This document shows, piece by piece, positions 1 to 23,602 of a stretch of DNA of 24,000 nucleotides. Each line of letters opens with the position of its first letter. Position 1 is the stretch's first letter. This stretch comes from Edaphovirga cremea. GTDB lineage: Bacteria; Pseudomonadota; Gammaproteobacteria; Enterobacterales; Enterobacteriaceae. The notes below the pieces were generated by a model that searched no databases, was not told where the DNA came from, and worked only from the letters and a program-made list of their open reading frames with translations. The position numbers and the translations under genes are program-made. Location of the stretch: assembly GCF_003332275.1 (NCBI RefSeq), contig NZ_QOVA01000004.1:186327-210326 (forward strand), in the 5' to 3' direction.

Positions 1-58
1 TGACCTGAAAGAAAAAATGCAGAAAGTGATCCGTTGTGTAAGCGCTTTTCCTACACAA

Positions 59-1411: not shown

Positions 1412-1542
1412 CAGGGTTTTCCGTGAGTTGAGGATTCAGAAGAGGATAGAGTTTAACGCCAGATGCTGCATTGTCGCAAAGTTTGCATCAATGATTGTGA
1501 TAGGTGAAGGTAGCCGGAGCAGGACACCCCGGCTTGAACGGC

Positions 1543-2385: not shown

Positions 2386-2577
2386 AGTGTTGTGTGCTTT
2401 CCGGTGTTATTGATGTTTACAGTAAAATCAGTAAGTTACCGAAAATTTATACTGTGTTGGTGAGGCAGTTCATGCGCTTTCCCTGGGCGCAAAAACGCTT
2501 ATGGCGGCCAGTATAAACTGTCTGGCGGCTAAAAAGTGAAAAGCGTGACAAATAGGCAGGCTAAAACATTCTCAATG

Positions 2578-2606
2578 TTGACAAACAGGTCGCCGGAAAT
2601 TTAACT
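2578..2606 (+). promoter_or_regulatory. Candidate sigma70 promoter upstream of prlC (TTGACA-N17-TTAACT)
   Basis: Read directly: TTGACA at 2578-2583, 17-nt spacer, TTAACT at 2601-2606. It lies about 180 nt upstream of the prlC ATG. Motif match only. Confidence 0.3.
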
Positions 2607-2688
2607 CCAAAGACTTCATTGGCAAGACGCACAACAGTTGAAAACCCACAGAAGAGAACGCGATCTTCTCTCATTAGGCATTTCCAGC

Positions 2689-2718
2689 CATTGATTTTCC
2701 CCTCTTTTGACCTCATGT
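2689..2718 (+). promoter_or_regulatory. Candidate sigma32 (heat-shock) promoter of prlC
   Basis: CATTGAT(T) at 2689-2695, 14-15 nt spacer, CCTCATGT at 2711-2718. This resembles the sigma32 consensus CTTGAAA-N13-15-CCCCATNT. prlC is a known sigma32 regulon member in E. coli. Motif match only. Confidence 0.35.
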
Positions 2719-2787
2719 TATTTATTCATCCGCATTCACGGCGTGCTGCGTGAGCTCCATGCCCAAAACGATAATCAGGACTGCCCT

Positions 2788-4830
2788 ATGACAAATCCGT
2801 TATTGACCCCGTTCTCCCTGCCGCCGTTTTCTGACATTCGTCCTGAACATATTGTTCCTGCTGTGAAGTCCGTTTTGGATGAAAGTCGCCAGACTATCGA
2901 AAAGGTCGTGGCACAAGGTGGGCCCTTTACCTGGGAAACCCTGTGCCAGCCATTGGCGGACAGTGACGATCGCCTGAGCCGGATCTGGTCGCCAATCGGC
3001 CACCTTAACTCGGTGAAAAACAGCCCGGAACTGCGCGTCGCCTATGAAGAAGCGCTGCCGTTGCTGTCGGAATACAGCACGTGGGTGGGTCAGCATGCCG
3101 GTTTGTATCAGGCTTACCGCGATTTGAAAGAGGGTGAGCATTTCGCCAGCCTCACTGCACCGCAGAAAAAAGCCGTAGAGAACGCCCTGCGTGATTTCGA
3201 GCTGTCGGGCATTGGCCTGTCGCCAGAAAAACAGAAACGCTATGGTGAAATCTCCGCACGTCTTTCCGAATTGGGTTCGACGTACAGCAATAACGTGCTG
3301 GATGCGACGATGGGCTGGAGCAAACTGATTACCGATGAAGCGCAACTCAGCGGTATGCCGGAAAGCGCGCTGGCTGCGGCTAAAGCCATGGCGCAAGCCA
3401 AAGAACAGGATGGCTGGCTGCTGACGCTGGATATTCCAAGCTACCTGCCGGTTCTCACGTACTGCGACAATCAGGCACTGCGTGAAGAGATGTATCGCGC
3501 CTACGGTACCCGCGCCTCCGATCAGGGGCCGAATGCCGGTAAATGGGACAACAGCGAAGTGATGGCCGAAGAGTTGGCACTGCGTCATGAGCTTGCACAA
3601 TTGCTGGGATTCAACTCTTATGCTGAAAAATCGCTGGCGACCAAAATGGCCGAAAGCCCGGCGCAGGTCATCGATTTCCTGAATGATTTGGCGAAACGCG
3701 CCCGTCCACAAGGTGAGCAGGAACTGGCTCAACTACAGGCTTTTGCAAAAGAGCACCACGGCGTAGAGACGTTGGAAGCCTGGGATTTAGCCTATTACGG
3801 CGAAAAACAGAAACAGCATCTGTTCTCGATCAGCGATGAGCAATTGCGCCCATATTTCCCGGAGCAGCGGGTATTGAGCGGTTTGTTTGAAGTGGTCAAC
3901 CGTATTTACGGTATCACCGCCAAAGAGCGTAAAGGTGTCGATGTCTGGCATCCGGAAGTGCGTTTCTTCGATTTGTTTGATGAGAGCGGTGATTTACGCG
4001 GCAGTTTCTATCTGGATCTGTATGCGCGTGAAAACAAACGCGGCGGTGCCTGGATGGACGACTGCGTGGGTAGCTTGCGCAAAGCCAATGGCGAACTGCA
4101 AAAACCCGTGGCTTACCTCGTCTGTAATTTCAACCGGCCAATCGGCGACAAACCGGCCCTTTTCACCCACAACGAAGTGACGACGCTGTTCCATGAATTT
4201 GGTCACGGCTTGCATCACATGCTGACCAAAATTGATACGGCTGGCGTATCGGGTATCAGCGGTGTGCCGTGGGACGCGGTCGAACTGCCGAGCCAGTTTA
4301 TGGAAAACTGGTGCTGGGAGCCTGAGGCGCTTGAGTTTATCTCCGGCCATTACCAGACCGGCGAACCGTTGCCGCAAGAGATGCTCGACAAATTGCTGGC
4401 TGCGAAAAACTATCAGGCTGCGCTGTTTATCCTGCGTCAGCTCGAATTCGGCCTGTTCGATTTCCGCATGCATTATGAATACGATCCGGCAAAAGGCGCG
4501 CAAATCTTGCAAACGTTGGCCGAGGTGAAAAAACAGGTCGCGGTGGTTCCATCGCCGAGTTGGGGCCGTTTCCCGCACGCGTTCAGCCATGTTTTCGCTG
4601 GAGGCTATGCGGCTGGCTATTACAGCTACCTGTGGGCAGAAGTCCTGTCGGCGGATGCTTTCTCGCGCTTCGAAGACGAAGGTATTTTCAACCGCGAAAC
4701 CGGGCAATCGTTCCTGGATAATATTCTGTCCCGCGGGGGTTCTGAAGAGCCGATGGAGTTGTTCAAACGCTTCCGTGGCCGCGAACCGCAACTGGATGCT
4801 ATGCTGCGCCATTACGGAATTAAAGGGTAA
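2788..4830 (+). CDS. prlC: Oligopeptidase A (M3 family zinc metallopeptidase)
   Basis: Start set at ATG 2788 (MTNPLLTPF...), where E. coli OpdA begins. The ORF-track start at 2707 adds 27 non-conserved residues. HEFGH zinc motif present; collinear with E. coli PrlC to the C-terminal HYGIKG. Confidence 0.96.
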   Translation: MTNPLLTPFSLPPFSDIRPEHIVPAVKSVLDESRQTIEKVVAQGGPFTWETLCQPLADSDDRLSRIWSPIGHLNSVKNSPELRVAYEEALPLLSEYSTWVGQHAGLYQAYRDLKEGEHFASLTAPQKKAVENALRDFELSGIGLSPEKQKRYGEISARLSELGSTYSNNVLDATMGWSKLITDEAQLSGMPESALAAAKAMAQAKEQDGWLLTLDIPSYLPVLTYCDNQALREEMYRAYGTRASDQGPNAGKWDNSEVMAEELALRHELAQLLGFNSYAEKSLATKMAESPAQVIDFLNDLAKRARPQGEQELAQLQAFAKEHHGVETLEAWDLAYYGEKQKQHLFSISDEQLRPYFPEQRVLSGLFEVVNRIYGITAKERKGVDVWHPEVRFFDLFDESGDLRGSFYLDLYARENKRGGAWMDDCVGSLRKANGELQKPVAYLVCNFNRPIGDKPALFTHNEVTTLFHEFGHGLHHMLTKIDTAGVSGISGVPWDAVELPSQFMENWCWEPEALEFISGHYQTGEPLPQEMLDKLLAAKNYQAALFILRQLEFGLFDFRMHYEYDPAKGAQILQTLAEVKKQVAVVPSPSWGRFPHAFSHVFAGGYAAGYYSYLWAEVLSADAFSRFEDEGIFNRETGQSFLDNILSRGGSEEPMELFKRFRGREPQLDAMLRHYGIKG

Positions 4831-4839
4831 TAGTGCCGC

Positions 4840-5586
4840 GTGAGCATCTGTTTATTATGTGAAGAAGGCGCCGACCCCGGCGCCTTATCGATTTTGGCCG
4901 CTCGCTGGCAGTTGGCGTCTGATGACAACGCGCTGATGGCGCTGGTATTGACGCCTGAACGGCTGGAGCTGCGCAAGCGCGATGAGCCGAAACTGGGTGC
5001 CATTTTCGTCGATTTTGTGACGGGTGCAATGGCGCACCGGCGGCGTTTTGGTGGCGGACGCGGAGAAGCGGTTGCCAAGGCGGTGGGTATTAAAGGCAGT
5101 TATCTGCCGGATGTGGTGGATGCTACCGCCGGATTGGGTCGTGATGCCTTTGTTCTGGCTGCACTCGGGTGTACGGTGCGTATGCTGGAACGTAATCCGG
5201 TGGTTGCCGCACTGTTGGATGATGGTTTGCAGCGTGGTTATCGGGATGCGGAGATTGGACCCTGGTTGCAGCAGCGTTTAACGTTATTGCACGCCTCCAG
5301 CTTAACGGCGCTGGCCGATATTGCACCTCGCCCGCAGGTGGTTTATCTGGATCCCATGTATCCCCATCGGCAGAAAAGTGCGTTGGTGAAAAAGGAGATG
5401 CGGGTATTTCAATCGCTGGTTGGGCCGGATTTGGATGCAGACGGTCTATTGGCACCGGCTCGCGCATTGGCGACCAAGCGGGTGGTGGTAAAACGCCCTG
5501 ACTATGCCCCTCCACTGGCCAACGTCCCGGCGCAAGCCGCAGTAACGACAAAATCGCACCGTTTCGACCTCTATACTCCGCTTTAA
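4840..5586 (+). CDS. rsmJ: 16S rRNA (guanine1516-N2)-methyltransferase
   Basis: GTG start 10 nt after the prlC stop, so an operon with prlC. 248 aa. Blocks [27 protein letters not shown] (SAM binding) and VVYLDPM match E. coli RsmJ/YhiQ. Confidence 0.92.
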
Positions 5587-5699
5587 AAACAGCCCGCAGA
5601 AATGTTGATTAGTGAGACCCGGGATTAGTCTTAGGTCGAGCTAAGTCAAACTATTGTCGTTTACTACTGAAATTGCACAACAAATCCTATACAAATTGG

Positions 5700-5731
5700 T
5701 TGATTTAACTTATAGATTCCAATTCTATACA
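5700..5731 (+). promoter_or_regulatory. Possible long-spacer promoter with internal palindrome upstream of the MerR-like gene
   Basis: TTGATT (5700-5705), 20-nt spacer, TATACA (5726-5731). The spacer holds the inverted repeat TATAGA-N7-TCTATA (5711-5729). CTATACAA also occurs twice (about 5686 and 5724). Long spacers with a central dyad are typical of MerR-type promoters. Speculative. Confidence 0.2.
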
Positions 5732-5755
5732 ATTTATCAATGCTTCGGAGAGTTT

Positions 5756-6598
5756 ATGTCGGCATACAGCATAGAAGTTATTGCCGGACTTTGTGGAGTG
5801 AATCCAGTAACACTGCGCGCATGGCAGCGCTACGGGTTACTTAATCCCGTTCGCAATGACAAGGGACAACGCTTCTACAACGACGAGGATCTGTTTCAGG
5901 CGCATCTTATTCTGGAATGGTTGTCGAAGGGAGTCCCCATAAATCAGGTCCGCGGCATTATCGCGGGTGAGGTTGATAATATTGAGTTGGGGTGGCAGAC
6001 GCAGAGAAAAGAGCTGTGTGAGCTGTTGGATCCCCCACAGCCAAATAAATTACGTAACCTGTTGTGGCGCTTTGGGCGTGAGTATCCGGGGCGGAATCTG
6101 GTCAATGATATATTGCGGCCGATACGCAAGAGTTTATCCTCAGCAAAACCTGCAGGGTGGCAACAGCAGGCGAGCGTGTTGGATTGCGCCATTATTGAAT
6201 ATGCCACGTTTGCGTTGACCACTGCGCGCAAGCATTCCGGTGCGAGGGTACTGTTGGTGGCGTGGAATAACCGCAGCAGCATTGAGCTGTGGTTGGAGTC
6301 CATCCAGTTGGTCAGTGAAGGGTTGCGCGTGGAGCTGATTCCACACCCGGTATCCTGGCCGGATTTGACCCAATTCGAGATGGATCATTATCTGCTCTGG
6401 TCGGACAAACGGCTGAGCGAGGTACAGCAAGCGCTATTCGATGACTGGTTGAAGCAAGGTCTGCCGGTAATGTTGGTAGGTAAAGTCACCCAATTGAAGA
6501 AAAAAGCCGCCACCCGAGCCGTTGCCCAACGGGTTGGCAAGCTGGTGACCGACGGATTGAGAAGGGAAGCGCAGTCGTCCCCGCAATCTGAAACCTGA
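5756..6598 (+). CDS. MerR-family transcriptional regulator, MlrA-like (N-terminal HTH plus about 200-aa C-terminal domain)
   Basis: Start chosen at ATG 5756, preceded by GGAGAG. The ORF-track TTG at 5654 adds 34 residues of AT-rich leader. YSIEVIAGLCGVNPVTLRAWQRYGLLNPVRNDKGQRFYNDEDL is a canonical MerR HTH, closest in my memory to MlrA (YehV). Confidence 0.75.
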   Translation: MSAYSIEVIAGLCGVNPVTLRAWQRYGLLNPVRNDKGQRFYNDEDLFQAHLILEWLSKGVPINQVRGIIAGEVDNIELGWQTQRKELCELLDPPQPNKLRNLLWRFGREYPGRNLVNDILRPIRKSLSSAKPAGWQQQASVLDCAIIEYATFALTTARKHSGARVLLVAWNNRSSIELWLESIQLVSEGLRVELIPHPVSWPDLTQFEMDHYLLWSDKRLSEVQQALFDDWLKQGLPVMLVGKVTQLKKKAATRAVAQRVGKLVTDGLRREAQSSPQSET

Positions 6599-6662
6599 GC
6601 GCCGCCAGATCGTGTTCTAGAAAAATTGCTTATAAAATAATGTCTTGGCAGAGACAGAAATG

Positions 6663-6694
6663 CCCGCCAGTTTTAATGGCGGGCGTTTTGTTTA
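6663..6694. terminator. Bidirectional rho-independent terminator shared by the MerR-like gene and uspA
   Basis: GCCCGCCA (6663-6670), loop GTTTTAA, TGGCGGGC (6678-6685), then GTTTTGTTT on the plus strand. An A/T-rich tract precedes it (AGAAAT, read as ATTTCT on the minus strand). It lies between convergent stops at 6598 and 6723. Confidence 0.75.
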
Positions 6695-6722
6695 TCGGGC
6701 TATTCCCTCAGGAGAGGCTGAA

Positions 6723-7160
6723 TCAGTCGTCATCTTCATCTTTCAGCGGCACAATCAACATATCGATATGTACCGTGTTGATTAACTGGCGAGCTGAAGA
6801 CATCAGCTTGCTCCAGAAATCCTGATGGTGTCCGCATAGCACCAGGTCCACATCGTATTTTTTAATCGCATCTACCAACACTTGAGCCAAATCCCCGCTT
6901 CCACTGAGTGTTTCAGAGATCGGGTAGCCAGCATTCTGCGAAAGTTCGGTCAGCGCGTGATGGGTCTCTTCTGAAATACGTTTCTGCATGTCACCAAGAT
7001 TGACATCAATCAGACCGGTATACAGATCGGAATAGTTAACATCGACGTGGATCAGGGAAACTTTGGCATTGTAAGGTCTTGCCATTGAAACCGCTTTTTC
7101 CACCAGGATCTTGCTTTCCGGGGACAGGTCAACAGCAATAAGAATGTGCTTGTAAGCCAT
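6723..7160 (-). CDS. uspA: Universal stress protein A
   Basis: 145-aa ORF, almost identical to E. coli UspA ([17 protein letters not shown]...[23 protein letters not shown]). AAGGAG Shine-Dalgarno 8 nt upstream of the ATG. Confidence 0.97.
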
Positions 7161-7731
7161 AAGAATACTCCTTCCATAAAGTCGTTAAAAAATTGCGAAG
7201 TAAATGTCGTAACGATGTTGTCTGATTCTAACATTCAGCAATGCAATTGAAGTGTCGTTAGGATCACAACCTCCCAACACAAACTATAAGCCCTTCATAT
7301 CTCTTCTTTTGTTTTACACCCTGTAAAGGGGAAATCCAATAATTACCGTCACAATATCGCGATCAGCCTACATTTGCGCAGGCATCATTAAGTATAGCTT
7401 TCTAAATGAGCGCCAGGTGAAACCTGCAGTTTTTGACCGGGTACTGAGTGCAACCGCATTGTGTACACGGATGTCATTGACAGAATGAATAACAGGATGT
7501 AGTGATAAATTATTAATCGCCCTCTCTCTTTCTCGTTTAGTTTTCTACACTGAATAATGAGTGAGTGAATTGCGGGGTATAAGCAGGCGCTTGCGAGTGT
7601 TGAAAAAAGAGTTGCAGGGGGTGGGTGATGGTAGCCCTGGTGGTATCGGGCACGTGAGGCAGAGGTAGGCGTAGAAGCCGCGGGTGGGAGAGGGTGTTAC
7701 CCGCAGGCCGTATTGCCTTAAGGGGGGAAGC

Positions 7732-8067
7732 ATGATCAGTACTGTTGCGCTGTTTTGGGCTCTGTGTGTGGTATGCGTGATTAACATGGCGCGTTACTAT
7801 TCTTCTTTGCGGGCGCTGCTGGTGGTTTTGCGGGGGTGCGATCCACTGCTATATCAATATGTTGATGGTGGGGGATTCTTTACTTCGCATGGTCAACCCA
7901 GCAAGCAGATCAGGCTGGTGCGTTATATCTTTTCCCAACGCTATCTTGATCATCACGATCCGGAATTTATTCACCGCTGTGCACGCGTAAGGGGGCAGTT
8001 CGTTCTGACCAGTGCGCTGTGTGGGTTGGTGGTCATCAGTCTTATGGCGATGATGATTTGGTACTAG
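7732..8067 (+). CDS. uspB: Universal stress protein B (small membrane protein)
   Basis: Start at ATG 7732 ([15 protein letters not shown]...), giving 111 aa as in E. coli UspB. The ORF-track start at 7684 adds 16 residues. Purine-rich SD (AGGGGGGAAG) upstream. Divergent from uspA as in E. coli. Confidence 0.93.
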
Positions 8068-8086
8068 TCTGGCGACAGACGGGCAG

Positions 8087-8118
8087 AAAAAAGGCGGCTC
8101 CTGATTGGGCCGCCTTTT
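8087..8118. terminator. Bidirectional rho-independent terminator between uspB and pitA
   Basis: A-run (8087-8092), GGCGGC (8093-8098), 10-nt loop, GCCGCC (8109-8114), T-run (8115-8118). It lies between convergent stops at 8067 and 8159. Confidence 0.7.
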
Positions 8119-8158
8119 GCTATCTAACTCCCTACAACCTATCTGCTTCTGATCACAA

Positions 8159-9658
8159 TCAGATAAATTGCAGTGAAATCCAATACAGCACGCCAGAAAG
8201 AACGATGGAAATTGGCAGGGTCAGTATCCAGGCCAACAAAATGTTCTTCACGGTTTTGCTTTGTACGCCCCCACCATCAACAATCATAGTCCCGGCAACG
8301 GCAGAAGAGAGTACATGGGTAGTGGATACCGGCATACCCGTATAACTGGCTACACCTATGGAGATGGCCGCGGTCAACTGGGCAGATACGCCCTGCGCGT
8401 AGGTCATTCCTTTCTTGCCAATCTTCTCACCGATGGTGGTTGCAACACGTTTCCAACCCACCATGGTACCCAGCGACAGTGCCAGCGCAACGGCAACGAT
8501 GATCCAGGTTGGTGCGTACTCAACGGTTTCCAGCAGATCGCTACGCAAGTCATTCAGGAAGCGCTGGTCTTCTACTGAGGTCTCCGGCAGCTTGGCGGCT
8601 TTCTCTGCGGTATCCGCAACGCACATCAGCAAGCGGCGCATATGGTTGCGCTGATCAACTGTGAGTTCGCTGTAACTTTGCAGATTGGCCAGCAACGCCT
8701 GGGCTTTGCTTATGGCAATCCCGGCACGTGACGTATCACAATGGAACTCGGCCGGAGTATCCGGAGTTGTTTCTTCCGGAGTAGGGACCAGCGGAGTCTG
8801 TGCAATAACGTGCGGCAATGTTTCAGTGTGGCGTTGATAAAATTGCTCAAGATGGGTGACAGCATCGCGGGTGCGTGTGATGTCATAGCCAGTCGCATTC
8901 ATATTGAGCACGAAACCCGCAGGTGCCACGCCAATCAATACCAGCATAATCAAACCAATACCTTTCTGACCATCATTGGCACCGTGAGAGAAACTCACAC
9001 CAATGGCAGAAAGGATCAGTGCGATACGGGTCCAGAATGGCGGTTTACGTTTACCGTCAATCTTTTCACGTTCGGCGGGTGTCAAATGTATACGACGACG
9101 TTTTTTCGTACTGCTCCAGAAACGGCGCAGCACAAACACCATCAAGCCTGCCACGGCCATACCCACCAGTGGAGAGATGAGCAATGACAGGAAAATAGCG
9201 ATCATTTTCGGTACGTTCAACGCATCCACCACTGAACTGTCAGTCATGATTGCATTGGTCAAACCGATACCGATGATTGCACCAATCAATGTATGGGAGC
9301 TGGACGCCGGCAAGCCGAAATACCAGGTTCCCAGATTCCAGATAATCGCCGCCAGAAGCATGGAAAAGACCATGGCCAGGCCGTGAGCGGAACCCACATT
9401 AAGTAAGAGATCGGTCGGTAATAAATGGACGATGGCGTAGGCAACACTCAAACCGCCGAGCATTACGCCAAGAAAGTTAAAGACCCCAGCCATAACGACC
9501 GCAACTTGCGAACGCATGGCACGAGTATAAATAACAGTCGCAACCGCGTTGGCGGTATCGTGGAAACCATTGATGGCTTCATAAAACAACACGAACAACA
9601 GCGCGAGTACTAGTAACAGGCCGGTTTGGAAATCCAGCCCAGCGAACAGATGTAGCAT
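8159..9658 (-). CDS. pitA: Low-affinity inorganic phosphate transporter (PiT/PHO4 family)
   Basis: Start at ATG 9658 ([13 protein letters not shown]...), giving 499 aa as in E. coli PitA. The ORF-track start at 9781 adds 41 non-conserved residues. Motifs [12 protein letters not shown] and [10 protein letters not shown] present. Confidence 0.95.
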
Positions 9659-9972
9659 AAGCGTTACGCCAGTTTGTGGACATGAACGCGGCGCATTATC
9701 CGCGAGAATAGGGTGCGTGGAAAAGCAAAATATGACCTTTTCTTGACATAAGTTATGATGGAGGGCTCTCCTTATGGTCATTAATGATTAAAAATCATAA
9801 GGTTAATGGCATTTACGTAAACTAACAATTTCTTACTATGGCGTGAAGAGAGCGCCCGATTTACAATCGGCCGCCAAAATGGCGCAAGAATTCGCCTTAT
9901 ATAGGGTTTAGCACATAACTGAACAGTTAGCGTAACGCCCAAAGTATGATGATTTTATGGAGGAGAGACCGG

Positions 9973-11172
9973 GTGGAACAGTTTGATGTGGTAGTCATTG
10001 GTGCGGGCGCAGCCGGGATGTTTTGTGCCGCGCAGGCAGGTCAGGGTGGCTGTCGCGTCCTATTGTTGGACAACGGTAAAAAAGCCGGACGGAAGATTTT
10101 GATGTCGGGCGGCGGTCGGTGCAATTTCACCAATATGTATGCGGAACCGGCAGCCTATATCTCCAATAATCCCCATTTCTGCAAGTCCGCCCTGGCGCGT
10201 TATACCCAATGGGATTTCATTGAACTGGTCAGTCGCTATGGCATTGCCTACCACGAAAAAACCTTGGGCCAACTTTTTTGCGATGAGTCGGCCCAACAGA
10301 TTGTCGATCTCTTGCTAAAAGAGTGCGAACTGGGGCAAGTCACGCTTCGCCTGCGCAGCGAAGTATTGGGCGTGGAAAAAACGGAAGACGGTTTTCTGCT
10401 GACCGTTAATGGTGAGAAAGTGAGCGCTCGCTCACTTGTAGTCGCTGCAGGTGGACTCTCCATGCCAGGTCTGGGCGCGACCCCATTCGGTTACAAGCTG
10501 GCAGAACAGTTTGGCCTTAAGGTGCTGCCAACGCGTGCCGCCCTGGTGCCTTTTACGCTGCATAAACCGCTACTTGACCACTTGCAGACGCTTTCTGGCG
10601 TTTCGGTGCCTGCTGTCGTGACGGCTGAAAATGGGGTGACCTTCAAAGAGAATATTCTTTTTACCCATCGCGGCCTGTCTGGCCCGGCTATTCTCCAGCT
10701 TTCCAGCTACTGGCAGCCCGGTGAGTATGTGAGTGTTAACTTACTTCCAGGCGTCGATCTGGAGGCATTTATCAACGCTGAGCGCGTCGCGCATCCCAAT
10801 CAGAGCGTCAAGAATACGCTGGCACAAAAGCTGCCCAAGCGGTTGGTTGAATGCCTGCAAACGCTGGGACAATTACCTGATGTGACATTGAAACAGCTCA
10901 ATGTCCCGCAGCAGGTGGAGTTGATCGATACGTTGCAACAATGGCGCGTCCAACCAAACGGCACGGAAGGTTATCGCACGGCGGAAGTGACTCTCGGTGG
11001 TGTGGATACGCGCGAGCTGTCGTCCAAAACCATGGCTGCGAATCAGGTTCCGGGACTCTATTTCATCGGCGAAGTGGTAGATGTGACCGGCTGGCTGGGA
11101 GGATATAACTTCCAGTGGGCGTGGAGCTCCGCCTGGGCCTGTGCGCAGGCATTGGTTTATGAAAATAGGTAA
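9973..11172 (+). CDS. yhiN: FAD-dependent oxidoreductase, YhiN/HI0933-like flavoprotein
   Basis: GTG 9973 preceded by GGAGGAGAG aligns with the E. coli YhiN N-terminus (M/V-E-x-FD-hhh-IGAGAAGMFC). The ATG at 9946 is an alternative start. C-terminal GEVVDVTGWLGGYNFQWAWSSAWACAQ matches the family. Double stop TAATAA. Confidence 0.85.
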   Translation: MEQFDVVVIGAGAAGMFCAAQAGQGGCRVLLLDNGKKAGRKILMSGGGRCNFTNMYAEPAAYISNNPHFCKSALARYTQWDFIELVSRYGIAYHEKTLGQLFCDESAQQIVDLLLKECELGQVTLRLRSEVLGVEKTEDGFLLTVNGEKVSARSLVVAAGGLSMPGLGATPFGYKLAEQFGLKVLPTRAALVPFTLHKPLLDHLQTLSGVSVPAVVTAENGVTFKENILFTHRGLSGPAILQLSSYWQPGEYVSVNLLPGVDLEAFINAERVAHPNQSVKNTLAQKLPKRLVECLQTLGQLPDVTLKQLNVPQQVELIDTLQQWRVQPNGTEGYRTAEVTLGGVDTRELSSKTMAANQVPGLYFIGEVVDVTGWLGGYNFQWAWSSAWACAQALVYENR

Positions 11173-11217: not shown

Positions 11218-11249
11218 TTATTCATGCATCCCGCAGGATGCATGAATAA
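11218..11249. repeat. Perfect inverted repeat (14-bp stem, 4-nt loop) at the core/island junction
   Basis: TTATTCATGCATCC-CGCA-GGATGCATGAATAA read directly. No T-tract on either side, so it is not a canonical intrinsic terminator. It lies between convergent yhiN and the kinase gene. Confidence 0.85.
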
Positions 11250-11253
11250 CGAT

Positions 11254-11337
11254 CATTTGGAAATTATTAGTGCTCAGTTGGAAACCAATAACAATCAGTT
11301 GGAAATTAATGGCAATCAGTTGGAAATCAACTGAACC
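11254..11337. repeat. Four tandem 21-bp repeats (core CAGTTGGAAA / TTTCCAACTG)
   Basis: Units at 11254-11274, 11275-11295, 11296-11316 and 11317-11337. Plus-strand cores are CATTTGGAAA, then CAGTTGGAAA three times. The last unit encodes the final residues of the kinase. The kinase stop (11316-18) spans the unit 3/4 junction. Confidence 0.85.
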
Positions 11338-12815
11338 ACGACAAGTCTTCCGCCCTCCTCGGCTGACAGCACAAATTGGAGGCCATCAGTCAGGGCAAGC
11401 TTATCCCCCAGATCAATCTTTCGTTTCTCTGGCAGCACCATCAGTCCGTCAATTCCTTCATTCACCAGCCACCACTGATCCTGATGGAAAAGAAAATAGC
11501 CCACCCGTTTTTTTTGTTCCGCGGTGGTTCTTTCATTCGGGGCAATTAACCTGTTTACATGCCACGCATAAAGCGATTGCCCGCTCCATACCATCAACCG
11601 GTGATCATCAGGCCGGAAACTTCCCGTTTTTCTCGATGAATACAGATTAAGAATCGGCAATTTTCCGGTGTAGGGCGTCCCGCAGTAGGGACAAACAGGT
11701 TGGGTTTTCCCGGAGAAAACGTACCATTTTTGCTCGCAGGTCGGGTTCTGGCAGGGCTGGATCAGGTCAACGGTTTTGACCAGCGCACTTTCCCACTCGT
11801 CAGCCGTCGGGCGTTTGGCTGGTTCATGCAAACCGGTAATAAACGCTTTCTCAAAAAGAGGCGTCAGATAGGGTCCGACGATGGTGTAAGGGATTTTCTG
11901 CGGATTAGCCCAAGGTAAAGAGGACGGACTGACCTGATTGAGTTTCACGGCGTTACTGTGATCGGTGGGATGCTCAATAAATAGCGCCTTTTCGCCCATC
12001 GAAAGCGCCTCATCACGCATCTCGTCATCCATATCGTGGATTTTCCCGCCGCGTAATGGATGGCGGTAAAAGAGGTACATATAGATGAGTACCGAGAGGG
12101 CGTGTCTGTCCGTCGTTATGCTCGGCAATATCCTCTGGCTGTCTTCCTTCAACAGGTGAGTGGTCTTCACCACTTCTGGCGCGATGAAATCCGGTGTTCC
12201 GACAACGTCCGGCGGATATTTACCCGGAACCACCAGGCCATCAATATCTATAATGCAGGCATGCCCCTGTTCTGGGTCAATCAGGACGTTTTTATAACTC
12301 AGATCGCTGTGGCACAGCCCAGCAGCATGCATGCGACGCACGGCGCGGGTTAACAGCAGGCACACCTTGAGGTAGTTGAGAATATTGCCGCGTTCCCTCG
12401 GGTCCAGAAACTTGTTTTGGTTATTCGCGCTGGCAAACCATTTTCCCTCTTTTTCACGGCCCTTGATCCCGAGGAAGTCGTCGTTTTTAGAACCGTACTT
12501 AAAGAAAAAGTGGCTTTGATACGTCGGCACCACGATACCAATTTTACCGTTGTGCTCAACGACACTCGTAGGCCAGCAGAATAACTCTTTCCAATATTCG
12601 CCGCCCGCCTGCTCAAAAATATTTTGGCGGTAGCGGCCTGTGATCATCGCGACGCGTTCTTTCGCCTGATCCGTTTGCGGCTTTTTATAGAAAGCGACGA
12701 CATAGGTTCTATCCGGAGAAAAGTAGACGTCCTTCATCGAACCGGAGCCGATAATCTCATCAACATACTGGACGGTTTCACCATCCTTTGTCGTGCAGGT
12801 AATAATATTTGCCAT
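11316..12815 (-). CDS. Eukaryotic-like Ser/Thr protein kinase with C-terminal Zn-ribbon and FHA-like domain (TerY-P triad kinase)
   Basis: Gly-rich loop IGSGSMKDVY, VAFYKK lysine, catalytic loop CHSDLSYKNVLI, DIDG (DFG equivalent), PDFIAPE (APE). C-x4-C-x14-C-x2-C Zn ribbon. C-terminus LVNEGIDGLMV...IDLGDKLALTDGLQFVL is FHA-like. ATG 12815 chosen; GTG 12824 is an alternative. Confidence 0.85.
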   Translation of the reverse strand: MANIITCTTKDGETVQYVDEIIGSGSMKDVYFSPDRTYVVAFYKKPQTDQAKERVAMITGRYRQNIFEQAGGEYWKELFCWPTSVVEHNGKIGIVVPTYQSHFFFKYGSKNDDFLGIKGREKEGKWFASANNQNKFLDPRERGNILNYLKVCLLLTRAVRRMHAAGLCHSDLSYKNVLIDPEQGHACIIDIDGLVVPGKYPPDVVGTPDFIAPEVVKTTHLLKEDSQRILPSITTDRHALSVLIYMYLFYRHPLRGGKIHDMDDEMRDEALSMGEKALFIEHPTDHSNAVKLNQVSPSSLPWANPQKIPYTIVGPYLTPLFEKAFITGLHEPAKRPTADEWESALVKTVDLIQPCQNPTCEQKWYVFSGKTQPVCPYCGTPYTGKLPILNLYSSRKTGSFRPDDHRLMVWSGQSLYAWHVNRLIAPNERTTAEQKKRVGYFLFHQDQWWLVNEGIDGLMVLPEKRKIDLGDKLALTDGLQFVLSAEEGGRLVVVQLISN

Positions 12816-12845
12816 AAAAATCACCAGTATTTGATACCAACGCGC

Positions 12846-14432
12846 TTACCAGGAGATGATGATCGTCCGGTCATCGTGATTCCCAGGCGAGAAGAAGTTC
12901 AACCACTCTGTCAGACGCTCCGCCGCAAGTGCGTCATCGCTCAGACACGGGGAAATCTCCGTAATCAATGCATCCCATTTATCCGCTGATTGCAGACCAT
13001 TGTCAGTCTCAAACAGCGGATCGGACACGCCATCGGTCATCAGTATCAGATGAGAAATATCCTTCCACTTGCCGATAATGATGCGCTTATTGAAATCCGC
13101 ATCCTTTACGGCGTCATTATCCAGAAAACGAGTTTGTCCGGCATATTCGCCACTGTCAGGCGTCCCAAGCAATCGGACTCTCCCGGCAGGGCCATATGCG
13201 GCAATGGCACCGTCGCCCATCCAGAATGAGGCGGCAAACAGGTCATCGCCGGACCTGAACGAGAGGGTGGCCAAAAGGGTAGTCGAATACGATTTTACTG
13301 GCTCATTGGCCTCAATCGCTTCGCTGTTCAGTTTGTTGACGGCAAGCCGTGCCGCTTTATGAAATAAATCGCCAAAGAAGGGGCCGACGGCTCGTTGCGA
13401 CTCGCTATCCCATTTATCGATCAAGGATTCTATTGGCAGGTCGTGTTCGCCATTCAACTGTTTGACCAGATAGTCCCCGACCGTCTTTGTCACGATTCGC
13501 GAACCTTCACGGGAGTTTTTCGCGCTCCCGGCTCCGTCGGCGACCAGCAGTACGCTCCAGCCATTCCCGGCATTGTGTGAGATAAAAAAGTCATCGTCGC
13601 GGAAGGAGCCAACATGCTCATGCGAGCGCCCCCGGCGACTGGCTGCTGCAATTCTAACCCCGCCGTCGACAATCATTTTGCTATCAATATTTGATTTGTA
13701 ATATCTGTCATCAGTCGGGGGATCGATGATTTTCCATAAACTGCGTGGATCAGGGTTCACAATAAGCAAAACAGCGGTGGTGTAGGAGATAGTTGGGTAG
13801 CAGGACCACGTAACACTCATCTCAATATCGCCACTTTTGGTTGGTGTTCCCGCAAGTGTTGAGGTGATGGGATCAAATGCAATCCCGATATCTTCTGGCA
13901 GGGAGACGCCCTGAATGGTGGCCGGGGTGCCATTATCCAGCATTATGTCTATTTCAGAGTGAAAGGGGATACCGACCCGGGCATTGGCGATATTGATTTT
14001 TGCCATTGGCTGACGGTGTTCAGGTACTTGCGTTGTCACTGGGCTACCCTCCAACGGGACTTGACCGGGTTTTAACGGGGGTGCCGCCATCGCTGACAGC
14101 AGTGTTTCCTCTGACTCGGTCTTTGCCGCCAGATCGTCAATAGCCTGCTGATTCTCTTCAGCGATATTCTGCCCCGCGCTGGCGTCGATCTCTTCAGGAT
14201 CAACGGGTGGCTCCTGAACGTTTTGCAGATCGTCAGGATCGGATAAATTCACCTCCGCTGCAGGTGTGGTTTTTTCTGTTTTAATGATAATTTTATTGAC
14301 GACTTCCTGAAGCAGATCGTCAATTTCAGTATCTTCACAGAGTGCGGTCAGGGTGGAATCAGGAATTGAAATGTTTCTCTCCTGAAGGAGACTCTTCAAC
14401 GCCGTTATGTTCCGGGCGGTTTTTGTTTCCAT
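12846..14432 (-). CDS. PP2C-family Ser/Thr phosphatase with long N-terminal extension (TerY-P triad phosphatase)
   Basis: C-terminal half has PP2C motifs: RRGRSHEHVGSFRDDDF, LLVADGAGSA, LILMTDGVSDPL, GNHDDRTIIISW. The N-terminal about 257 aa has an acidic/Pro-rich linker and an Ig-like segment (LPEDIGIAFDPITSTLAGTPTKSGD). The start codon overlaps the upstream stop (TAATG). Confidence 0.85.
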   Translation of the reverse strand: METKTARNITALKSLLQERNISIPDSTLTALCEDTEIDDLLQEVVNKIIIKTEKTTPAAEVNLSDPDDLQNVQEPPVDPEEIDASAGQNIAEENQQAIDDLAAKTESEETLLSAMAAPPLKPGQVPLEGSPVTTQVPEHRQPMAKINIANARVGIPFHSEIDIMLDNGTPATIQGVSLPEDIGIAFDPITSTLAGTPTKSGDIEMSVTWSCYPTISYTTAVLLIVNPDPRSLWKIIDPPTDDRYYKSNIDSKMIVDGGVRIAAASRRGRSHEHVGSFRDDDFFISHNAGNGWSVLLVADGAGSAKNSREGSRIVTKTVGDYLVKQLNGEHDLPIESLIDKWDSESQRAVGPFFGDLFHKAARLAVNKLNSEAIEANEPVKSYSTTLLATLSFRSGDDLFAASFWMGDGAIAAYGPAGRVRLLGTPDSGEYAGQTRFLDNDAVKDADFNKRIIIGKWKDISHLILMTDGVSDPLFETDNGLQSADKWDALITEISPCLSDDALAAERLTEWLNFFSPGNHDDRTIIISW

Positions 14433-15472
14433 TAACCTTTCCCTCGGCTGACATCAAAATCTGACTTACCGCTATTCTCACTGAAGGAGATATTTTTATC
14501 ACACCACGGACAGATCACCGTTTCTGGCCCATTGATACAGAGTAATTTCCCGCATGAACACACGGCAAATGCCGTGGCATTGCCACAATGAGGGCAACCC
14601 GGGGCGCCGTGCAGCTCGCTGGTATTCACCTGAATAGTGGAGGCTGACTCATCGCTCCAGGCAAAATATTCATCATCTATTGGAAAACAGCCTGTCAGAT
14701 TAAAACCATGGATATTGAGTTTGAAGTCCAGCGACGAGAGATTGACATTCGGACGTTCATACTTCATCAGATACGGGCGTCTGGATTTGTTGCAACGGCC
14801 TACAAACGTGACGCAGGATTCATCATAAGCCCGGGTTACCTCATCCTTCGCCAGCCTGACAATATGATCGGTTTTACTTAAAAGAGGCGGGGACTCTTCG
14901 CCAACGCTGCGGCTATGCGCCACCACGGAGGCTGTTATCCATTTGATGAAGCGGGTGAAATCCCCTTCCTGTGCTTCGGTAAAGAGCAGCACGTTTTCCG
15001 TCAATTGGCGCAGGATATTCAGGTCGGCTGATGAGCCCAACCCAATCGCTATCATATTAACCTTACGGGCATAATGTTCCTGCCAGCGTTTTATATCTGG
15101 TGCAACATCGTCCGTTGGACGACCATCGGTCAGGAGATAAACGACGGGTTTCCAATCCCCTTTACGCTCTGCGGTGGTTTTCCTGACCTGTCGATCAATT
15201 TGCTGGGATAACACATTCAGCGCACTCCCCAGGCTGGTGCCACCGCCAATGGGCAGGCGAGGAGGATAGAAAGCGGCAACCTCAACCAATGGCACGATCG
15301 TTTTTGCAACACCCGCAAATGCAATGACAGAAATCCAGGCCGTCTCCAGCGCGTGGGGATCCTTTTTCAAATCATTGACGATCATTTGCAAGCCGTCATT
15401 CATCTTCTTCAGATTTTCCCCGATCATGGACTCGGAACAGTCGAGTACGAAGAAAATGGGCAGTCTTCTCAT
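14432..15472 (-). CDS. terY: TerY-like von Willebrand A (vWA) protein with Cys-rich Zn-ribbon C-terminal extension (terY3-like position)
   Basis: MIDAS motif LDCSESM, GGGTSLG, LLTDGRPTDD. Shares the MRRLP N-terminus and F(I/F)KW(I/V)(T/S)ASV block with the two short TerY paralogues. C-terminal C-x2-C-x8-C-x-C-x4-C-x8-C-x2-C cluster. Confidence 0.85.
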   Translation of the reverse strand: MRRLPIFFVLDCSESMIGENLKKMNDGLQMIVNDLKKDPHALETAWISVIAFAGVAKTIVPLVEVAAFYPPRLPIGGGTSLGSALNVLSQQIDRQVRKTTAERKGDWKPVVYLLTDGRPTDDVAPDIKRWQEHYARKVNMIAIGLGSSADLNILRQLTENVLLFTEAQEGDFTRFIKWITASVVAHSRSVGEESPPLLSKTDHIVRLAKDEVTRAYDESCVTFVGRCNKSRRPYLMKYERPNVNLSSLDFKLNIHGFNLTGCFPIDDEYFAWSDESASTIQVNTSELHGAPGCPHCGNATAFAVCSCGKLLCINGPETVICPWCDKNISFSENSGKSDFDVSRGKG

Positions 15473-15541
15473 AACAAAACCCTCATCAAGCGTTCATTCC
15501 TTTTAACATGACGTGGTGTGTACCTGGCCAGCTAACAGTAG

Positions 15542-15572
15542 AGGCAAAGCCCCTGGTTTCGGGTCTTTGCCT
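15542..15572 (-). other. Stable intercistronic hairpin between terY and the TerY-P triad (no U-tract)
   Basis: On the minus-strand RNA: AGGCAAAG-A-CCC-GAAACCA-GGG-G-CUUUGCCU (8 bp + 3 bp around one mismatch). It starts 5 nt after the terY stop, within a 105-nt gap. The following sequence is not U-rich. Confidence 0.5.
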
Positions 15573-15577
15573 GTTGA

Positions 15578-16216
15578 CTACAGTACCAGCTGTATTTCAG
15601 GCGGTGGTGGCGGGAGATTCTCTTGTCCAGATGTCACGCCTGCACTGGAACTTCCTGATGAAACACTTGCCGAGACCCATTTGAAGAAGCCGGAAAAAGC
15701 GGTTGAATCCAGCGTCTCAAGCGCGACAACCTGTGATGTCAGTTGCTTAAGATGTTCATGTTTGGCTTTCGGACCGACTGCACACGCGATTATCGAGCCA
15801 AACGCGCGCTTTTTGACTTCCTTAATGGCTTCGCCATAGGCGTAGGTGTCTGATGGCGTGCCGTCGGTCATGAGGAAGACCAGAGGACGCCAGTCGCCTT
15901 TTTCATCGCCATCTGAGCGTTTGATGTCCCTGTCTACGCAGTGGAGAAGACATTCAAGTGCGGCACCGGTAAATGTTCCACCTGCACTCGGAACGGTGAT
16001 GTCAGAAAACTGAAAATCTTCGAGCGCGGTGAGCGTAATAAATTCGCGGGCTTCGTTGTCAAAGGTAATGATGGAGATATGTACACTTTCTAACGCGTAG
16101 GGATCCTGTCTCAGGGCGCTCAGCATGGCCAGAATGCCCACATTAACCGCATGTATGGACTCACCACGCATCGAGCCTGACGTATCGATCAACAGATAAA
16201 CCGGTAACCTTCTCAT
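15578..16216 (-). CDS. terY: TerY-type vWA protein (212 aa; terY2-like position)
   Basis: MRRLPVYLLIDTSGSM (DxSxS MIDAS), GGTFTG, FLMTDGTPSD, KGDWRPLV, FFKWVSASV. The start abuts the terX stop (TAAATG). C-terminal PPPPPEIQLVL. Confidence 0.9.
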   Translation of the reverse strand: MRRLPVYLLIDTSGSMRGESIHAVNVGILAMLSALRQDPYALESVHISIITFDNEAREFITLTALEDFQFSDITVPSAGGTFTGAALECLLHCVDRDIKRSDGDEKGDWRPLVFLMTDGTPSDTYAYGEAIKEVKKRAFGSIIACAVGPKAKHEHLKQLTSQVVALETLDSTAFSGFFKWVSASVSSGSSSAGVTSGQENLPPPPPEIQLVL

Positions 16217-16858
16217 TTAGATGTAACCTTTCAGATGAGTGACGAACGTATCTGATTCTGAAGGTTCTCCAATAGCGTTCAGTTTCCAGCCGGAATCCTC
16301 TCTGACCAGCTCAGCAAAGAGCATGGAACACTGATTATTAAACGCAGGGCCGCCTGACAGATCAAACCGTGCCATTTCGACATTTTTGGCATCGACCGCT
16401 CTGATGTAGGCATTCTGGACTTTGCCAAAATGCTGCTGAAGTTCGCGTCCGTTATAGATCTGGACAATAAAAACGATTTTTTCGTATTTCGGATCCAGTG
16501 TATTCAGATGGACAATGATTTGTTCGTCATCGCCGTCACCTGCGCCGGTGCGGTTATCACCCGTGAGCCAGATTTTGCCGGATTTGTGTTTGAGACTATT
16601 AAAAAAAATGATATCGCCATTCACAAGGGTAGATCTGCCATTTTCCACATCACCCAGATCGGTGACTTTCCCTTGCGCATTACACAGAAAAGCACTCACA
16701 TCGAGATCGTACTCAGCGGCTTTTTTGCCGAATAATCCCCCCATGAATCCTTTCTTCTCTTCATTGATGTCCCAGCCCAGGCCAATCGTGACAGAGGAGA
16801 GATCGAATTCATTTTTCCTGAGGCTGACTCCTTGCCCTTTACGCAAACTAACTGACAT
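16217..16858 (-). CDS. terX: TerD-family stress protein (TerX by position between terY genes)
   Basis: MSVSLRKGQGVSLRK...IGLGWD N-terminus and Ca-binding signature GDNRTGAGDGDDEQI, typical of the TerD/TerZ/TerX family. AAGGAG SD in the 20-nt gap upstream. Confidence 0.88.
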   Translation of the reverse strand: MSVSLRKGQGVSLRKNEFDLSSVTIGLGWDINEEKKGFMGGLFGKKAAEYDLDVSAFLCNAQGKVTDLGDVENGRSTLVNGDIIFFNSLKHKSGKIWLTGDNRTGAGDGDDEQIIVHLNTLDPKYEKIVFIVQIYNGRELQQHFGKVQNAYIRAVDAKNVEMARFDLSGGPAFNNQCSMLFAELVREDSGWKLNAIGEPSESDTFVTHLKGYI

Positions 16859-16878
16859 AACTACTCCTTGGTTATGAT

Positions 16879-17517
16879 TTAGAGAACCACATTTACTTCT
16901 GGTGGCGGTGGAGGTAAATCATCCAGCCCGATAACCTCTTTTTTACCGGACTCCACTTTCTGACTTCCTACGGAAATACTGGCAGAGACCCATTTGAAAA
17001 ACGCCTTAATGGATGAGGAGTCCGCTGTATCCAGCTGAAGAACGATTTCAGTAATTTCTTGCAAAACTTTCGTTTCGGCGGCATGCCCTGCGGCACAAGC
17101 CACGACAACGCCTGTGCGTGCCGCTTTGAAGGCACTGACTCCCTGGCGGTAGTCATCCGTCGGTGAACCATCGGTCATGATGAATACCAGTGGACGCCAG
17201 TCACCTTTTGTCTCGGCGGTGGTTTTCTGTACTTCGCGTTCGATACAGGCTGAAACCAGAGACAGGGCTTCACCCAGGGCAGTGGTGCCCCTCGCCACAA
17301 GGTCGGGTAATTTGAAATTGAGGAGGTCGGTCAGGGGAACGGCCTGGCGAGCGGCGGTATCAAAAGTAATAACAGAAACATAAGCTGTTTCAAGCGCGTA
17401 GGGATCTTGTCGAAGCGTCGATAACAACATTTGAACGCCGTTTTTAACGGCTTCAATCGGCTCGCCTGTCATCGAGCCCGATGTGTCAAGTACCAGATAG
17501 ACCGGGAGTCTTCGCAT
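16879..17517 (-). CDS. terY: TerY-type vWA protein (212 aa; terY1-like position next to terW)
   Basis: MRRLPVYLVLDTSGSM, GTTALG, FIMTDGSPTDD, KGDWRPLV, FFKWVSASI. C-terminal PPPPPEVNVVL. Confidence 0.9.
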   Translation of the reverse strand: MRRLPVYLVLDTSGSMTGEPIEAVKNGVQMLLSTLRQDPYALETAYVSVITFDTAARQAVPLTDLLNFKLPDLVARGTTALGEALSLVSACIEREVQKTTAETKGDWRPLVFIMTDGSPTDDYRQGVSAFKAARTGVVVACAAGHAAETKVLQEITEIVLQLDTADSSSIKAFFKWVSASISVGSQKVESGKKEVIGLDDLPPPPPEVNVVL

Positions 17518-17573
17518 GTAATTTCCCTACTATTATTAGTGGTGATATTTTTGACATAATAATTCATTTGGTC

Positions 17574-17603
17574 GTTATCTCAACAGAAATAGCAAGAGGT
17601 CAA
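17574..17603 (-). promoter_or_regulatory. Candidate promoter for the terY-terX-terY(-triad) unit
   Basis: Minus strand TTGACC (17603-17598), 18-nt spacer, GATAAC (17579-17574). It lies downstream of the terW terminator and about 55 nt upstream of the terY ATG. Weak -10; motif match only. Confidence 0.25.
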
Positions 17604-23366: not shown

Positions 23367-23506
23367 CCTCTGTCACGAAATTCAAATTTCACAAAATTGT
23401 AATAATCTCACGACAAAAATCGCCAAAGTCTTGAAGATTGAGAAAATAAAAACCGTTTAATATCAATATATTGTATGTATTGTAAAAATAACCATCAAAA
23501 ATGGCC

Positions 23507-23534
23507 TTGATCGAGAACTTCATCATGATATGAT
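23507..23534 (+). promoter_or_regulatory. Candidate sigma70 promoter of terZ (TTGATC-N16-TATGAT)
   Basis: TTGATC 23507-23512, 16-nt spacer, TATGAT 23529-23534, about 68 nt upstream of the terZ ATG. The spacer and -10 contain the palindrome ATCATGAT (23522-23529). Confidence 0.4.
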
Positions 23535-23602
23535 TTTTTTGTTCACGGGTTTTGGTGTAAAAAGTGTTGTTCTTTTCAATACCTCTTTTAAGGAATTCAA
23601 AT

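Follow-up and report, generated by a model that had tools for sequence, protein, structure and literature searches.

Does a gene triad whose domains recall a reported anti-phage system belong to that system, or is it part of the ter cluster in which it lies? This question was raised by three genes of Edaphovirga cremea located in a stretch of 24,000 nucleotides (nt; contig NZ_QOVA01000004.1, positions 186,327 to 210,326), hereafter called the window. They encode a vWA protein with a TerY_C domain, a PP2C phosphatase and a Ser/Thr kinase, and the original prediction had described them as a TerY-P triad and a candidate anti-phage signalling module. From sequence and profile comparisons we conclude that ter-linked triads, of which the window triad is one, and the phage-tested TerY-P systems are separate families sharing domain superfamilies and logic. 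Hence, phage data obtained for one family cannot be transferred to the other.

Relation of the window triad to classical and phage-tested TerY-P genes

The three genes were found as co-directional open reading frames (ORFs) on the minus strand, as had been predicted: the vWA/TerY_C gene at 14432..15472 (346 amino acids, aa), the PP2C gene at 12846..14432 (528 aa) and the kinase gene at 11316..12815 (499 aa). Pfam matches were VWA (3.9e-14) and TerY_C (1.4e-53), PP2C_2 (5e-48) and Pkinase (1.4e-10), respectively. The kinase could alternatively start at a GTG codon (11316..12824, minus strand, 502 aa); the ATG at 12815 is the likelier start because a Shine-Dalgarno-like GGTGA sequence precedes it and the alignment with all orthologues begins at the first residue of the ATG version. 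The vWA and PP2C genes are translationally coupled through a stop/start overlap, TAATG at 14434..14430, which is kept as TAATG or TGATG in most enterobacterial loci. The PP2C stop is followed by a spacer of 21 nt (to the GTG) or 30 nt (to the ATG), and a gap of exactly 105 nt (15473..15577) separates the upstream terY from the triad; every one of these junctions agrees with the original prediction. The motifs quoted there, DCSES for the vWA protein, ADGAGS, MTDGVSD and HDDRT for PP2C, and HSDLSYKN, DIDG and APE for the kinase, were all found in the translations and in conserved columns. The triad enzymes look catalytically competent, as had been proposed, with key residues conserved in the orthologue or family alignments of all three proteins. 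Neither a signal peptide nor a membrane segment was seen in the triad proteins when their sequences were read by eye, without a tool, and they are predicted to be cytoplasmic.

The classical triad was defined as TerY-P by comparative genomics (Anantharaman 2012, as summarised in PMC11090510), and the latter paper describes it as a predicted metal-sensing phospho-switch in Ter systems. All features of this form were found in the window: a MIDAS-containing vWA domain with TerY_C, an adjacent PP2C, a zinc-ribbon kinase and a Ter-linked, co-directional operon. The match of domains and operon layout upholds the assignment to the TerY-P architecture of comparative genomics made in the original prediction. 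With the same domains, gene order and position after terY-terX-terY, the window triad is an orthologue of the classical triad without essential difference; however, it is chromosomal, whereas the classical examples are plasmid-borne, and its PP2C linker is a variant of its own.

A genome-wide scan with the kinase extended to more than 586 species, and the best 80 loci were read. The six-gene order TerY-TerX-TerY-vWA/TerY_C-PP2C-kinase was invariant in these loci wherever the flanking DNA was sufficient, and it was found in Enterobacterales, Acinetobacter, Chromatiaceae, Burkholderiales and a metagenome-assembled genome of Desulfuromonadaceae. Neighbours of the six-gene unit in the ter clusters encode PRTase_2, StiP, HAD-like, HpcH-type C-C lyase, ATP-grasp-like and TerW proteins. 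The triad had been regarded as a module set apart from terY; instead, it always forms the 3' part of a ter operon of six genes.

Three-gene TerY-P systems have been reported as protective, as the original prediction had stated: PMC7699616 and bioRxiv 10.1101/2022.08.12.503731 describe protection against T7-like phages or Autographiviridae. The phage-tested modules are called 'TerY-P-like' in PMC11090510, their kinase being fused to an OB fold in place of the zinc ribbon. As a positive control we used the TerY-p genes of E. coli G3/10, a Gao-system homologue that had been cloned earlier (bioRxiv 10.1101/2022.08.27.505566). These genes occupy positions 7200-10459 of the locus designated L082, beside a type I restriction-modification (R-M) system, and encode vWA, PP2C and kinase proteins of 277, 239 and 561 aa as compared to 346, 528 and 499 aa in the window.

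The G3/10 proteins matched the PADLOC models TerY (3.5e-173), PP2C (5.6e-108) and STK_OB (9e-265), whereas the window proteins did not match TerY (PDLC02224), PP2C (PDLC02222) or STK_OB (PDLC02223) even at E ≤ 10; at this threshold, the vWA and PP2C proteins had no match in PADLOC-DB at all, and the window kinase gave generic kinase matches only. None of these PADLOC hidden Markov models (HMMs) for the defence system therefore matched the three ORFs, as compared to 1e-108 to 1e-265 for the control; the original prediction had itself named an absence of such matches as refuting its proposal. Furthermore, STK_OB was matched by none of 95 diverse kinase relatives, and BLASTP between the corresponding proteins of the window and G3/10 triads gave nothing significant. 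Profile comparison related the two kinase cores (probability 75%, E 2.5e-5); nothing was obtained for the kinase C-terminal halves, and the PP2C proteins reached a probability of 9%.

Both triads consist of three co-directional genes encoding a vWA protein, a PP2C-like phosphatase and a Ser/Thr kinase, and both presumably act in phospho-signalling. However, the G3/10 vWA protein lacks the Pfam TerY_C match present in the window protein, and the G3/10 kinase ends in an OB fold, whereas the window kinase ends in a zinc ribbon and an FHA-like domain. The G3/10 triad resides in a defence island next to the type I R-M system; the window triad resides in a ter cluster with core genes on its other flank. 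The proposal of a Gao-type anti-phage defence system was thus not borne out, with neither an HMM nor a BLASTP match and with a zinc ribbon and an FHA-like domain in place of the OB fold.

With NCBIfam, neither triad matched a specific model, and the two could hence not be told apart by it. The product names given by the NCBI annotation pipeline PGAP do differ: the G3/10 genes are named 'TerY-P anti-phage system ...', the ter-linked genes generically. The Gao-type locus was present in 5 of 5426 E. coli genomes, the ter-linked kinase in 388 of 5426. The name 'TerY-P' covers two unrelated-looking families, and phage data exist only for the rare OB-fold kind; calling ter-linked triads anti-phage from the name alone would be an error. 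At L082 7200-14399, genes for type I M and S subunits follow immediately downstream of the G3/10 triad, and the triad is preceded by an IS5-family element and a gene with a YagK/YfjJ domain, a typical mobile defence-island context.

Orthologues of the window kinase were found on 2332 of 72,556 plasmids, chiefly of Klebsiella, E. coli, Salmonella and Enterobacter, and the 388 E. coli genomes, out of 5426 complete ones, carry theirs mostly on plasmids. Protein-level and 'distant' searches were needed for these counts since megablast was insufficient: the 4.4-kb region gave no match to an E. coli genome and only 74.7% matches to the kinase, in three Enterobacter plasmids. Among the carriers is a plasmid of Klebsiella sp. 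P1927, probably the K. pneumoniae P1927 whose plasmid has a 'terY-C' region within terY-CYXYW-ZABCDEF (PMC12054061). The triad is a common, well-sampled and already described gene set; because the window locus is an orthologue of it, its novelty is low. The useful outcomes are the separation of the two families and the kinase details given below, namely the relocated lysine and the FHA-like domain.

Domain structure of the triad proteins

The kinase comprises a kinase domain (aa 1-345; 12815..11781, minus strand), recognised by Pfam Pkinase, AlphaFold2 and Foldseek, a C4 zinc ribbon (aa 352-382; 11762..11670, minus strand), recognised by four invariant cysteines and profile matches, and an FHA-like beta-sandwich (aa 385-499; 11663..11319, minus strand), recognised by AlphaFold2 and Foldseek. 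The AlphaFold2 model, built on an alignment of 95 family representatives, reached a pLDDT (predicted local distance difference test) of 96.9 and a predicted template-modelling score of 0.95. Foldseek matched residues 1-345 to CaMKII, phosphorylase kinase (PhK) and GSK3. Hanks-type hallmarks are present in conserved columns: H169-S-D171...N176, D190-I-D192-G, A212-P-E214 and R335. Among the 95 representatives, D171 is kept in 85, N176 in 78, D190 in 72 and D192 in 82, and the APE motif is nearly invariant. The catalytic loop reads H-S-D in place of H-R-D, which makes the protein a non-RD kinase, and the activation segment GLVVPGKYPPDVV contains neither Ser nor Thr; for kinases in general, such a segment speaks against regulation through phosphorylation of the activation loop.

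The canonical beta3 lysine (VAIK) is missing, position 41 being Ala (A41; codon 12693-12695), and the third-glycine position of the G-loop holds a lysine instead (GSGSMK28DVY; codon 12732-12734). Across the family, K28 occurs in 65 of the 95 representatives, 64 of which have a residue other than Lys at position 41 (A, C, Q, G, L, Y, S); of 16 representatives with G28, 13 have K41. Because K28 and K41 covary in this way, the lysine of the ATP site appears to have been relocated to the G-loop rather than its function having been lost. Such a lysine swap is the arrangement of eukaryotic WNK kinases: the WNK1 G-loop, GRGSFKTVY, carries a lysine at the third-glycine position, as does GSGSMKDVY of the window kinase, and the beta3 site is occupied by Ala or Cys. 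The resemblance looks convergent; the family has both lysine arrangements, covarying. The swap also bears on the choice of a K-to-A mutant, for which K28 would be the target rather than K44 or K45.

The zinc-ribbon profile matched the C4 ribbons of COX5B and eS31. PknG was the best PDB sequence match of the kinase; a second segment, CPYCGTPY in the kinase and CPYCGSPY in PknG, was weak and non-significant (i-Evalue 30). The C-terminal domain was also modelled separately (pLDDT 96.6), and the top 50 PDB matches returned by Foldseek were all FHA domains, whose fold is an 11-stranded beta-sandwich, including those of APLF, Pml1, GarA, Rv1747, OdhI, PNKP and Rad53. Probabilities ranged from 0.87 to 1.00 (≥0.96 for the top 44) and E-values from 2e-3 to 4e-2; target-normalised template-modelling (TM) scores were mostly 0.4-0.6 for isolated FHA domains. 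In the 154-aa C-terminal segment near-invariance is limited to H74 and N107 (kinase H419 and N452). Of the residues with which FHA domains canonically bind phosphothreonine (Gly-Arg, Ser-x-x-His and Asn), a conserved Arg or Ser was not evident at the places expected in the C-terminal alignment, and we therefore use the label 'FHA-like' only. Neither Pfam nor a PDB sequence-profile search, which found the zinc ribbon only, detected the FHA domain, and Pfam at E ≤ 10 gave nothing useful for the kinase N-terminus, the kinase C-terminus or the PP2C N-terminus. An account of the triad kinase in PMC11090510 likewise mentions the zinc ribbon and no FHA-like domain. In the model, the zinc ribbon and the FHA-like domain are rigidly packed and probably serve docking or the reading of phospho-peptides.

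The likeness to PknG and GarA, the former as the best PDB sequence match and the latter as a type of FHA domain among the best C-terminal fold matches, is local, as is that to WNK. The Cys-rich segment of PknG is N-terminal to its kinase domain, whereas the window zinc ribbon is C-terminal, and GarA is a protein separate from PknG.

At E ≤ 1e-30 the kinase family comprised 345 clusters (50% identity), most of them full length. Distant kinases with the canonical lysine (about 37% identity) were again found within vWA-PP2C-kinase triads: one in Heliorestis, inside a cluster of TerD, PRTase_2 and C-C-lyase genes, and two standing alone amid housekeeping genes. No recognisable defence genes were present among the Pfam annotations of the neighbours of these three triads. 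The canonical-lysine subgroup was considered as a defence-linked branch and rejected, its three contexts being Ter-linked or among housekeeping genes. Public names of plasmid-borne and E. coli kinase orthologues conflict with each other, including 'lipopolysaccharide kinase InaA family protein', 'helix-hairpin-helix domain-containing protein' and 'DNA-binding helix-hairpin-helix protein with protein kinase domain'. These discordant names are probably misleading; a helix-hairpin-helix domain was not found in the window kinase, for which Pfam gave Pkinase and a weak Kdo match only.

Within the triad, the kinase is the most conserved gene, with 65-89% identity across the 80 loci and 83-89% to enterobacterial orthologues. 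PP2C is the least conserved protein (33-63% identity; 51-63% as compared to other genera), and its length, mostly about 400-670 aa, varies because of an acidic, Pro-rich linker. The window PP2C consists of an N-terminal helical segment (about aa 1-55), this hypervariable linker (about aa 56-118; 14079-14267), an Ig-like domain of He_PIG type (about aa 143-225; 14006..13758, minus strand) and the catalytic domain (aa 262-528; 13649..12849, minus strand; PP2C_2 at aa 267-512). The Ig-like domain is supported by a precomputed PF05345 He_PIG match in one homologue (P0037). In 29 homologues, the linker cannot be aligned and differs widely in length between genera, and the remainder of the protein is highly conserved; the metal-binding residues are invariant. 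Additional conserved elements are an LKPGQxP motif before the Ig-like domain and NPDPRSLWK before the catalytic domain. The PP2C protein had no PDB sequence match at E ≤ 0.01, and its sequence is 100% identical to that of an Edaphovirga cremea protein.

The vWA protein comprises the vWA/MIDAS domain (about aa 1-190; 15472..14903, minus strand) and the Cys-rich metal-binding TerY_C domain (aa 217-346; 14824..14435, minus strand), whose match spans the full Pfam model. Its length is 344-357 aa in most of 73 loci, with one exception of 327 aa and one of 341 aa. The MIDAS residues D11, S13, S15, T79 and D116 and nine TerY_C cysteines (C227...C324) are at least 95% conserved in 75 orthologues. The short TerY paralogues upstream share near-identical C-terminal tails, ENLPPPPPEIQLVL and DDLPPPPPEVNVVL (15581-15622 and 16882-16923); judged from its conservation, this poly-proline TerY C-terminus could be a docking motif.

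Proposed function and alternative explanations

We regard it as reasonably likely that the triad is a cytoplasmic, reversible Ser/Thr phospho-switch which regulates the TerY/TerX(TerD) Ter stress complex, with a distinct role for each protein. The non-RD Hanks-type kinase would write the phosphate, its FHA-like and zinc-ribbon module would dock on or read a partner, and PP2C, with its Ig-like domain and variable linker, would erase the phosphate. The vWA/TerY_C protein may tie the switch to the metal or ligand state via its MIDAS and Cys-rich zinc domain, and it probably couples the switch to the neighbouring TerY (vWA) and TerX (TerD-family) proteins. The enzymes would act on each other or on Ter proteins, and the hairpin after terY may lower expression of the triad as compared to the structural TerY/TerX genes. 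The output would be regulation of the ter stress response, for which resistance to tellurite, zinc, colicin and phage has been reported; phage inhibition is among the ter-cluster phenotypes described in PMC12054061.

Thousands of clinical plasmids, from Klebsiella, E. coli, Salmonella and Enterobacter, carry the ter cluster, which has been linked to virulence and weak phage resistance of K. pneumoniae (PMC12054061), and the kinase/phosphatase/vWA triad is its sole obvious signalling part. The anatomy described here, including the kinase lysine, zinc ribbon, FHA-like domain, PP2C linker and hairpin, offers handles on what the triad regulates.

A functional parallel is provided by the H1 type VI secretion system (T6SS) of P. 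aeruginosa, in which the kinase PpkA, which has a vWA domain, the PP2C PppA and Fha1 form a threonine phosphorylation pathway. A Hanks kinase, PP2C, FHA and vWA would in both cases be combined in a reversible phospho-switch over a multiprotein apparatus. However, no T6SS genes lie near the window triad, its proteins are predicted to be cytoplasmic, its kinase and FHA-like domain form a single protein, and its vWA is a separate protein. The resemblance is functional only and does not indicate orthology.

An autonomous anti-phage system of the Gao 2020 TerY-P type, which would sense infection and block phages such as T7-like ones by kinase/phosphatase signalling, shares its domain superfamilies and gene order with the window triad, and the hypervariable N-terminal linker of PP2C is what diversifying pressure might yield. 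Protection of TerY-P systems against T7-like phages or Autographiviridae and the frequent occurrence of zinc-ribbon-kinase triads as passengers of CoCoNuT/McrBC restriction systems (PMC11090510) are also in favour of such a function. We nevertheless consider it unlikely, since the PADLOC models at E ≤ 10 and BLASTP found no counterpart, profile comparison related the kinase core only, and the kinase C-terminus is of the zinc-ribbon and FHA-like kind. Furthermore, the triad was never found apart from terY-terX-terY in the 80 loci, it adjoins the core genes gor, prlC, pitA and yhiN-like where the G3/10 triad adjoins a type I R-M system, and the NCBI pipeline names the two kinds differently. Between proteobacterial orders and classes, its kinase retains 65-89% identity, which is unusually high for a defence gene. 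Possible, if doubtful, is a contribution to phage inhibition as part of the ter cluster, in which the triad would sense or regulate TerZABCDE/TerY/TerX when infection perturbs ions or the envelope (IncHI2 'Phi'). The strict tie of the triad to ter genes and its 2332 plasmid-borne orthologues in Klebsiella, E. coli, Salmonella and Enterobacter are consistent with this; ter clusters were reported to inhibit phages, and deletion of terC weakened the phage resistance of K. pneumoniae (PMC12054061). However, the effect in the terC study was small, consisting of differences in plaque size and late growth (PMC12054061), and the phage phenotype was mapped, as cited in this study, to terZ, terC, terD and terA, outside the triad region. 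A role of the triad in the modest phage inhibition of ter clusters is a possibility.

A very improbable explanation is that the triad proteins lack catalysis and act as scaffolds, or that their genes are decaying and kept by linkage: the canonical beta3 lysine is absent (A41) and HxD/DxD motifs are degenerate in some family representatives, but the remaining catalytic residues of the window kinase are intact, K28 covaries with the loss of K41, PP2C and MIDAS residues are invariant, and the full-length ORFs show high conservation between orders and between classes. The remodelled active site of WNK1 is a binding site for chloride. The ter-linked kinase family might by analogy be a bacterial counterpart of WNK, with a kinase that senses an ion and a triad through which the Ter system would sense ions or metals, perhaps also as an infection-triggered switch underlying the phage inhibition known from ter plasmids; we give little credence to this idea, which, if true, would make the triad a sensor beyond a mere relay.

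Several points weigh against a phospho-switch of the Ter stress complex. In the searchable literature, we found no experiment on these three genes. Published transposon work, as cited in PMC12054061, attributes the phage, colicin and tellurite phenotypes to terZ, terC, terD and partly terA and not to the triad. The relocation of the kinase lysine is deduced from covariation in the alignment, the FHA assignment reflects modest fold similarity (E 2e-3, TM 0.5-0.6) lacking the canonical Arg and Ser, and the window hairpin has no T-run, which makes attenuation in this organism uncertain.

Ter-cluster setting and transcription signals

The upstream half of the six-gene unit (15578..17517, minus strand) consists of a first terY (16879..17517, Pfam VWA), terX of the TerD family (16217..16858, Pfam TerD) and a second terY (15578..16216, Pfam VWA). 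A promoter-like site, TTGAGA-16-TATTAT (17556..17583, minus strand; 10 of 12 positions, consensus scan only), lies 5' of the first terY and is the probable promoter of the unit. In Pectobacterium, the 'terY operon' has a TerW site before terY1 (PMC7843439).

The original prediction had noted a strong hairpin in the 105-nt gap, and a stem was indeed found right after the stop codon of the upstream terY (about 15536..15572, minus strand). Its arms, GGCAAAGACCC...GGGGCUUUGCC, have a folding energy of -18 kcal/mol (z = -3.98), and 1 of 200 shuffled sequences was equally stable; folding of the entire gap was unremarkable (z = -1.75). No T-run follows the stem and it was not called as a terminator; hence, the window copy does not qualify as a canonical intrinsic terminator. 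It is also not a known RNA element, since Rfam gave no known RNA across the entire window. Most enterobacterial loci have a stable hairpin at the same place after the terY stop, with differing stem sequences and many with a T-run. This suggests that the conserved hairpin is an internal terminator or attenuator which lowers triad expression relative to terY-terX-terY. The hairpin was also considered as the mark of an independent transcription unit. This was rejected because the consensus scan gave no promoter-like site on the minus strand of the gap and the stem lacks a T-run; read-through or attenuation is therefore likelier than a separate operon.

In transcription order, the genes 5' of the triad on its own strand encode ATP-grasp-like, PRTase_2/TRSP, HAD-like, StiP/PELOTA, HpcH-type lyase, TerW, TerY, TerX and TerY proteins; this set is the accessory half of the ter cluster. 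Pfam supported the PRTase_2/TRSP and StiP/PELOTA labels. The lyase gene gave a weak NCBIfam match to the RipC-type C-C lyase, below the cutoff, and the ATP-grasp and HAD labels are assigned provisionally from reading of the sequence and from the annotation of a homologous plasmid gene. The six-gene arrangement that includes the triad also occurs on Enterobacter and E. coli plasmids, adjoining terZABCDE or terW. The ATP-grasp-like gene was located at 22208-23272, and the window ends just beyond it (remaining 23389-24000). In related plasmids terZABCDE starts divergently from here; hence, the core ter genes probably lie just outside the window.

The opposite flank (1..11172) encodes a glutathione-reductase-type disulphide oxidoreductase, RlmJ, an M3 oligopeptidase, RsmJ, an MlrA-like regulator, Usp, a PitA-type transporter and a YhiN-like flavoprotein. 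We take it to resemble the core gor-prlC-pitA-yhiN neighbourhood of E. coli; therefore, the ter cluster is chromosomal and ends with the kinase gene. Between the convergent kinase and yhiN-like genes lies a perfect inverted repeat of 14 nt (11218..11249; arms 11218-11231 and 11236-11249, 100% complementary), a probable bidirectional terminator ending the operon.

Additionally, a 21-nt unit was seen to recur about four times in tandem at 11245-11328, each copy ending in a variant of TTTCCAACTGA. This sequence encodes the last codons of the kinase (Ser-Asn-stop), and the repeats cross the kinase stop at the junction of the ter cluster and the yhiN-like gene. They may have arisen by slippage or be left over from a site of insertion or recombination. 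At a Yersinia pestis locus (L034), an analogous repeat of its own gene end was observed.

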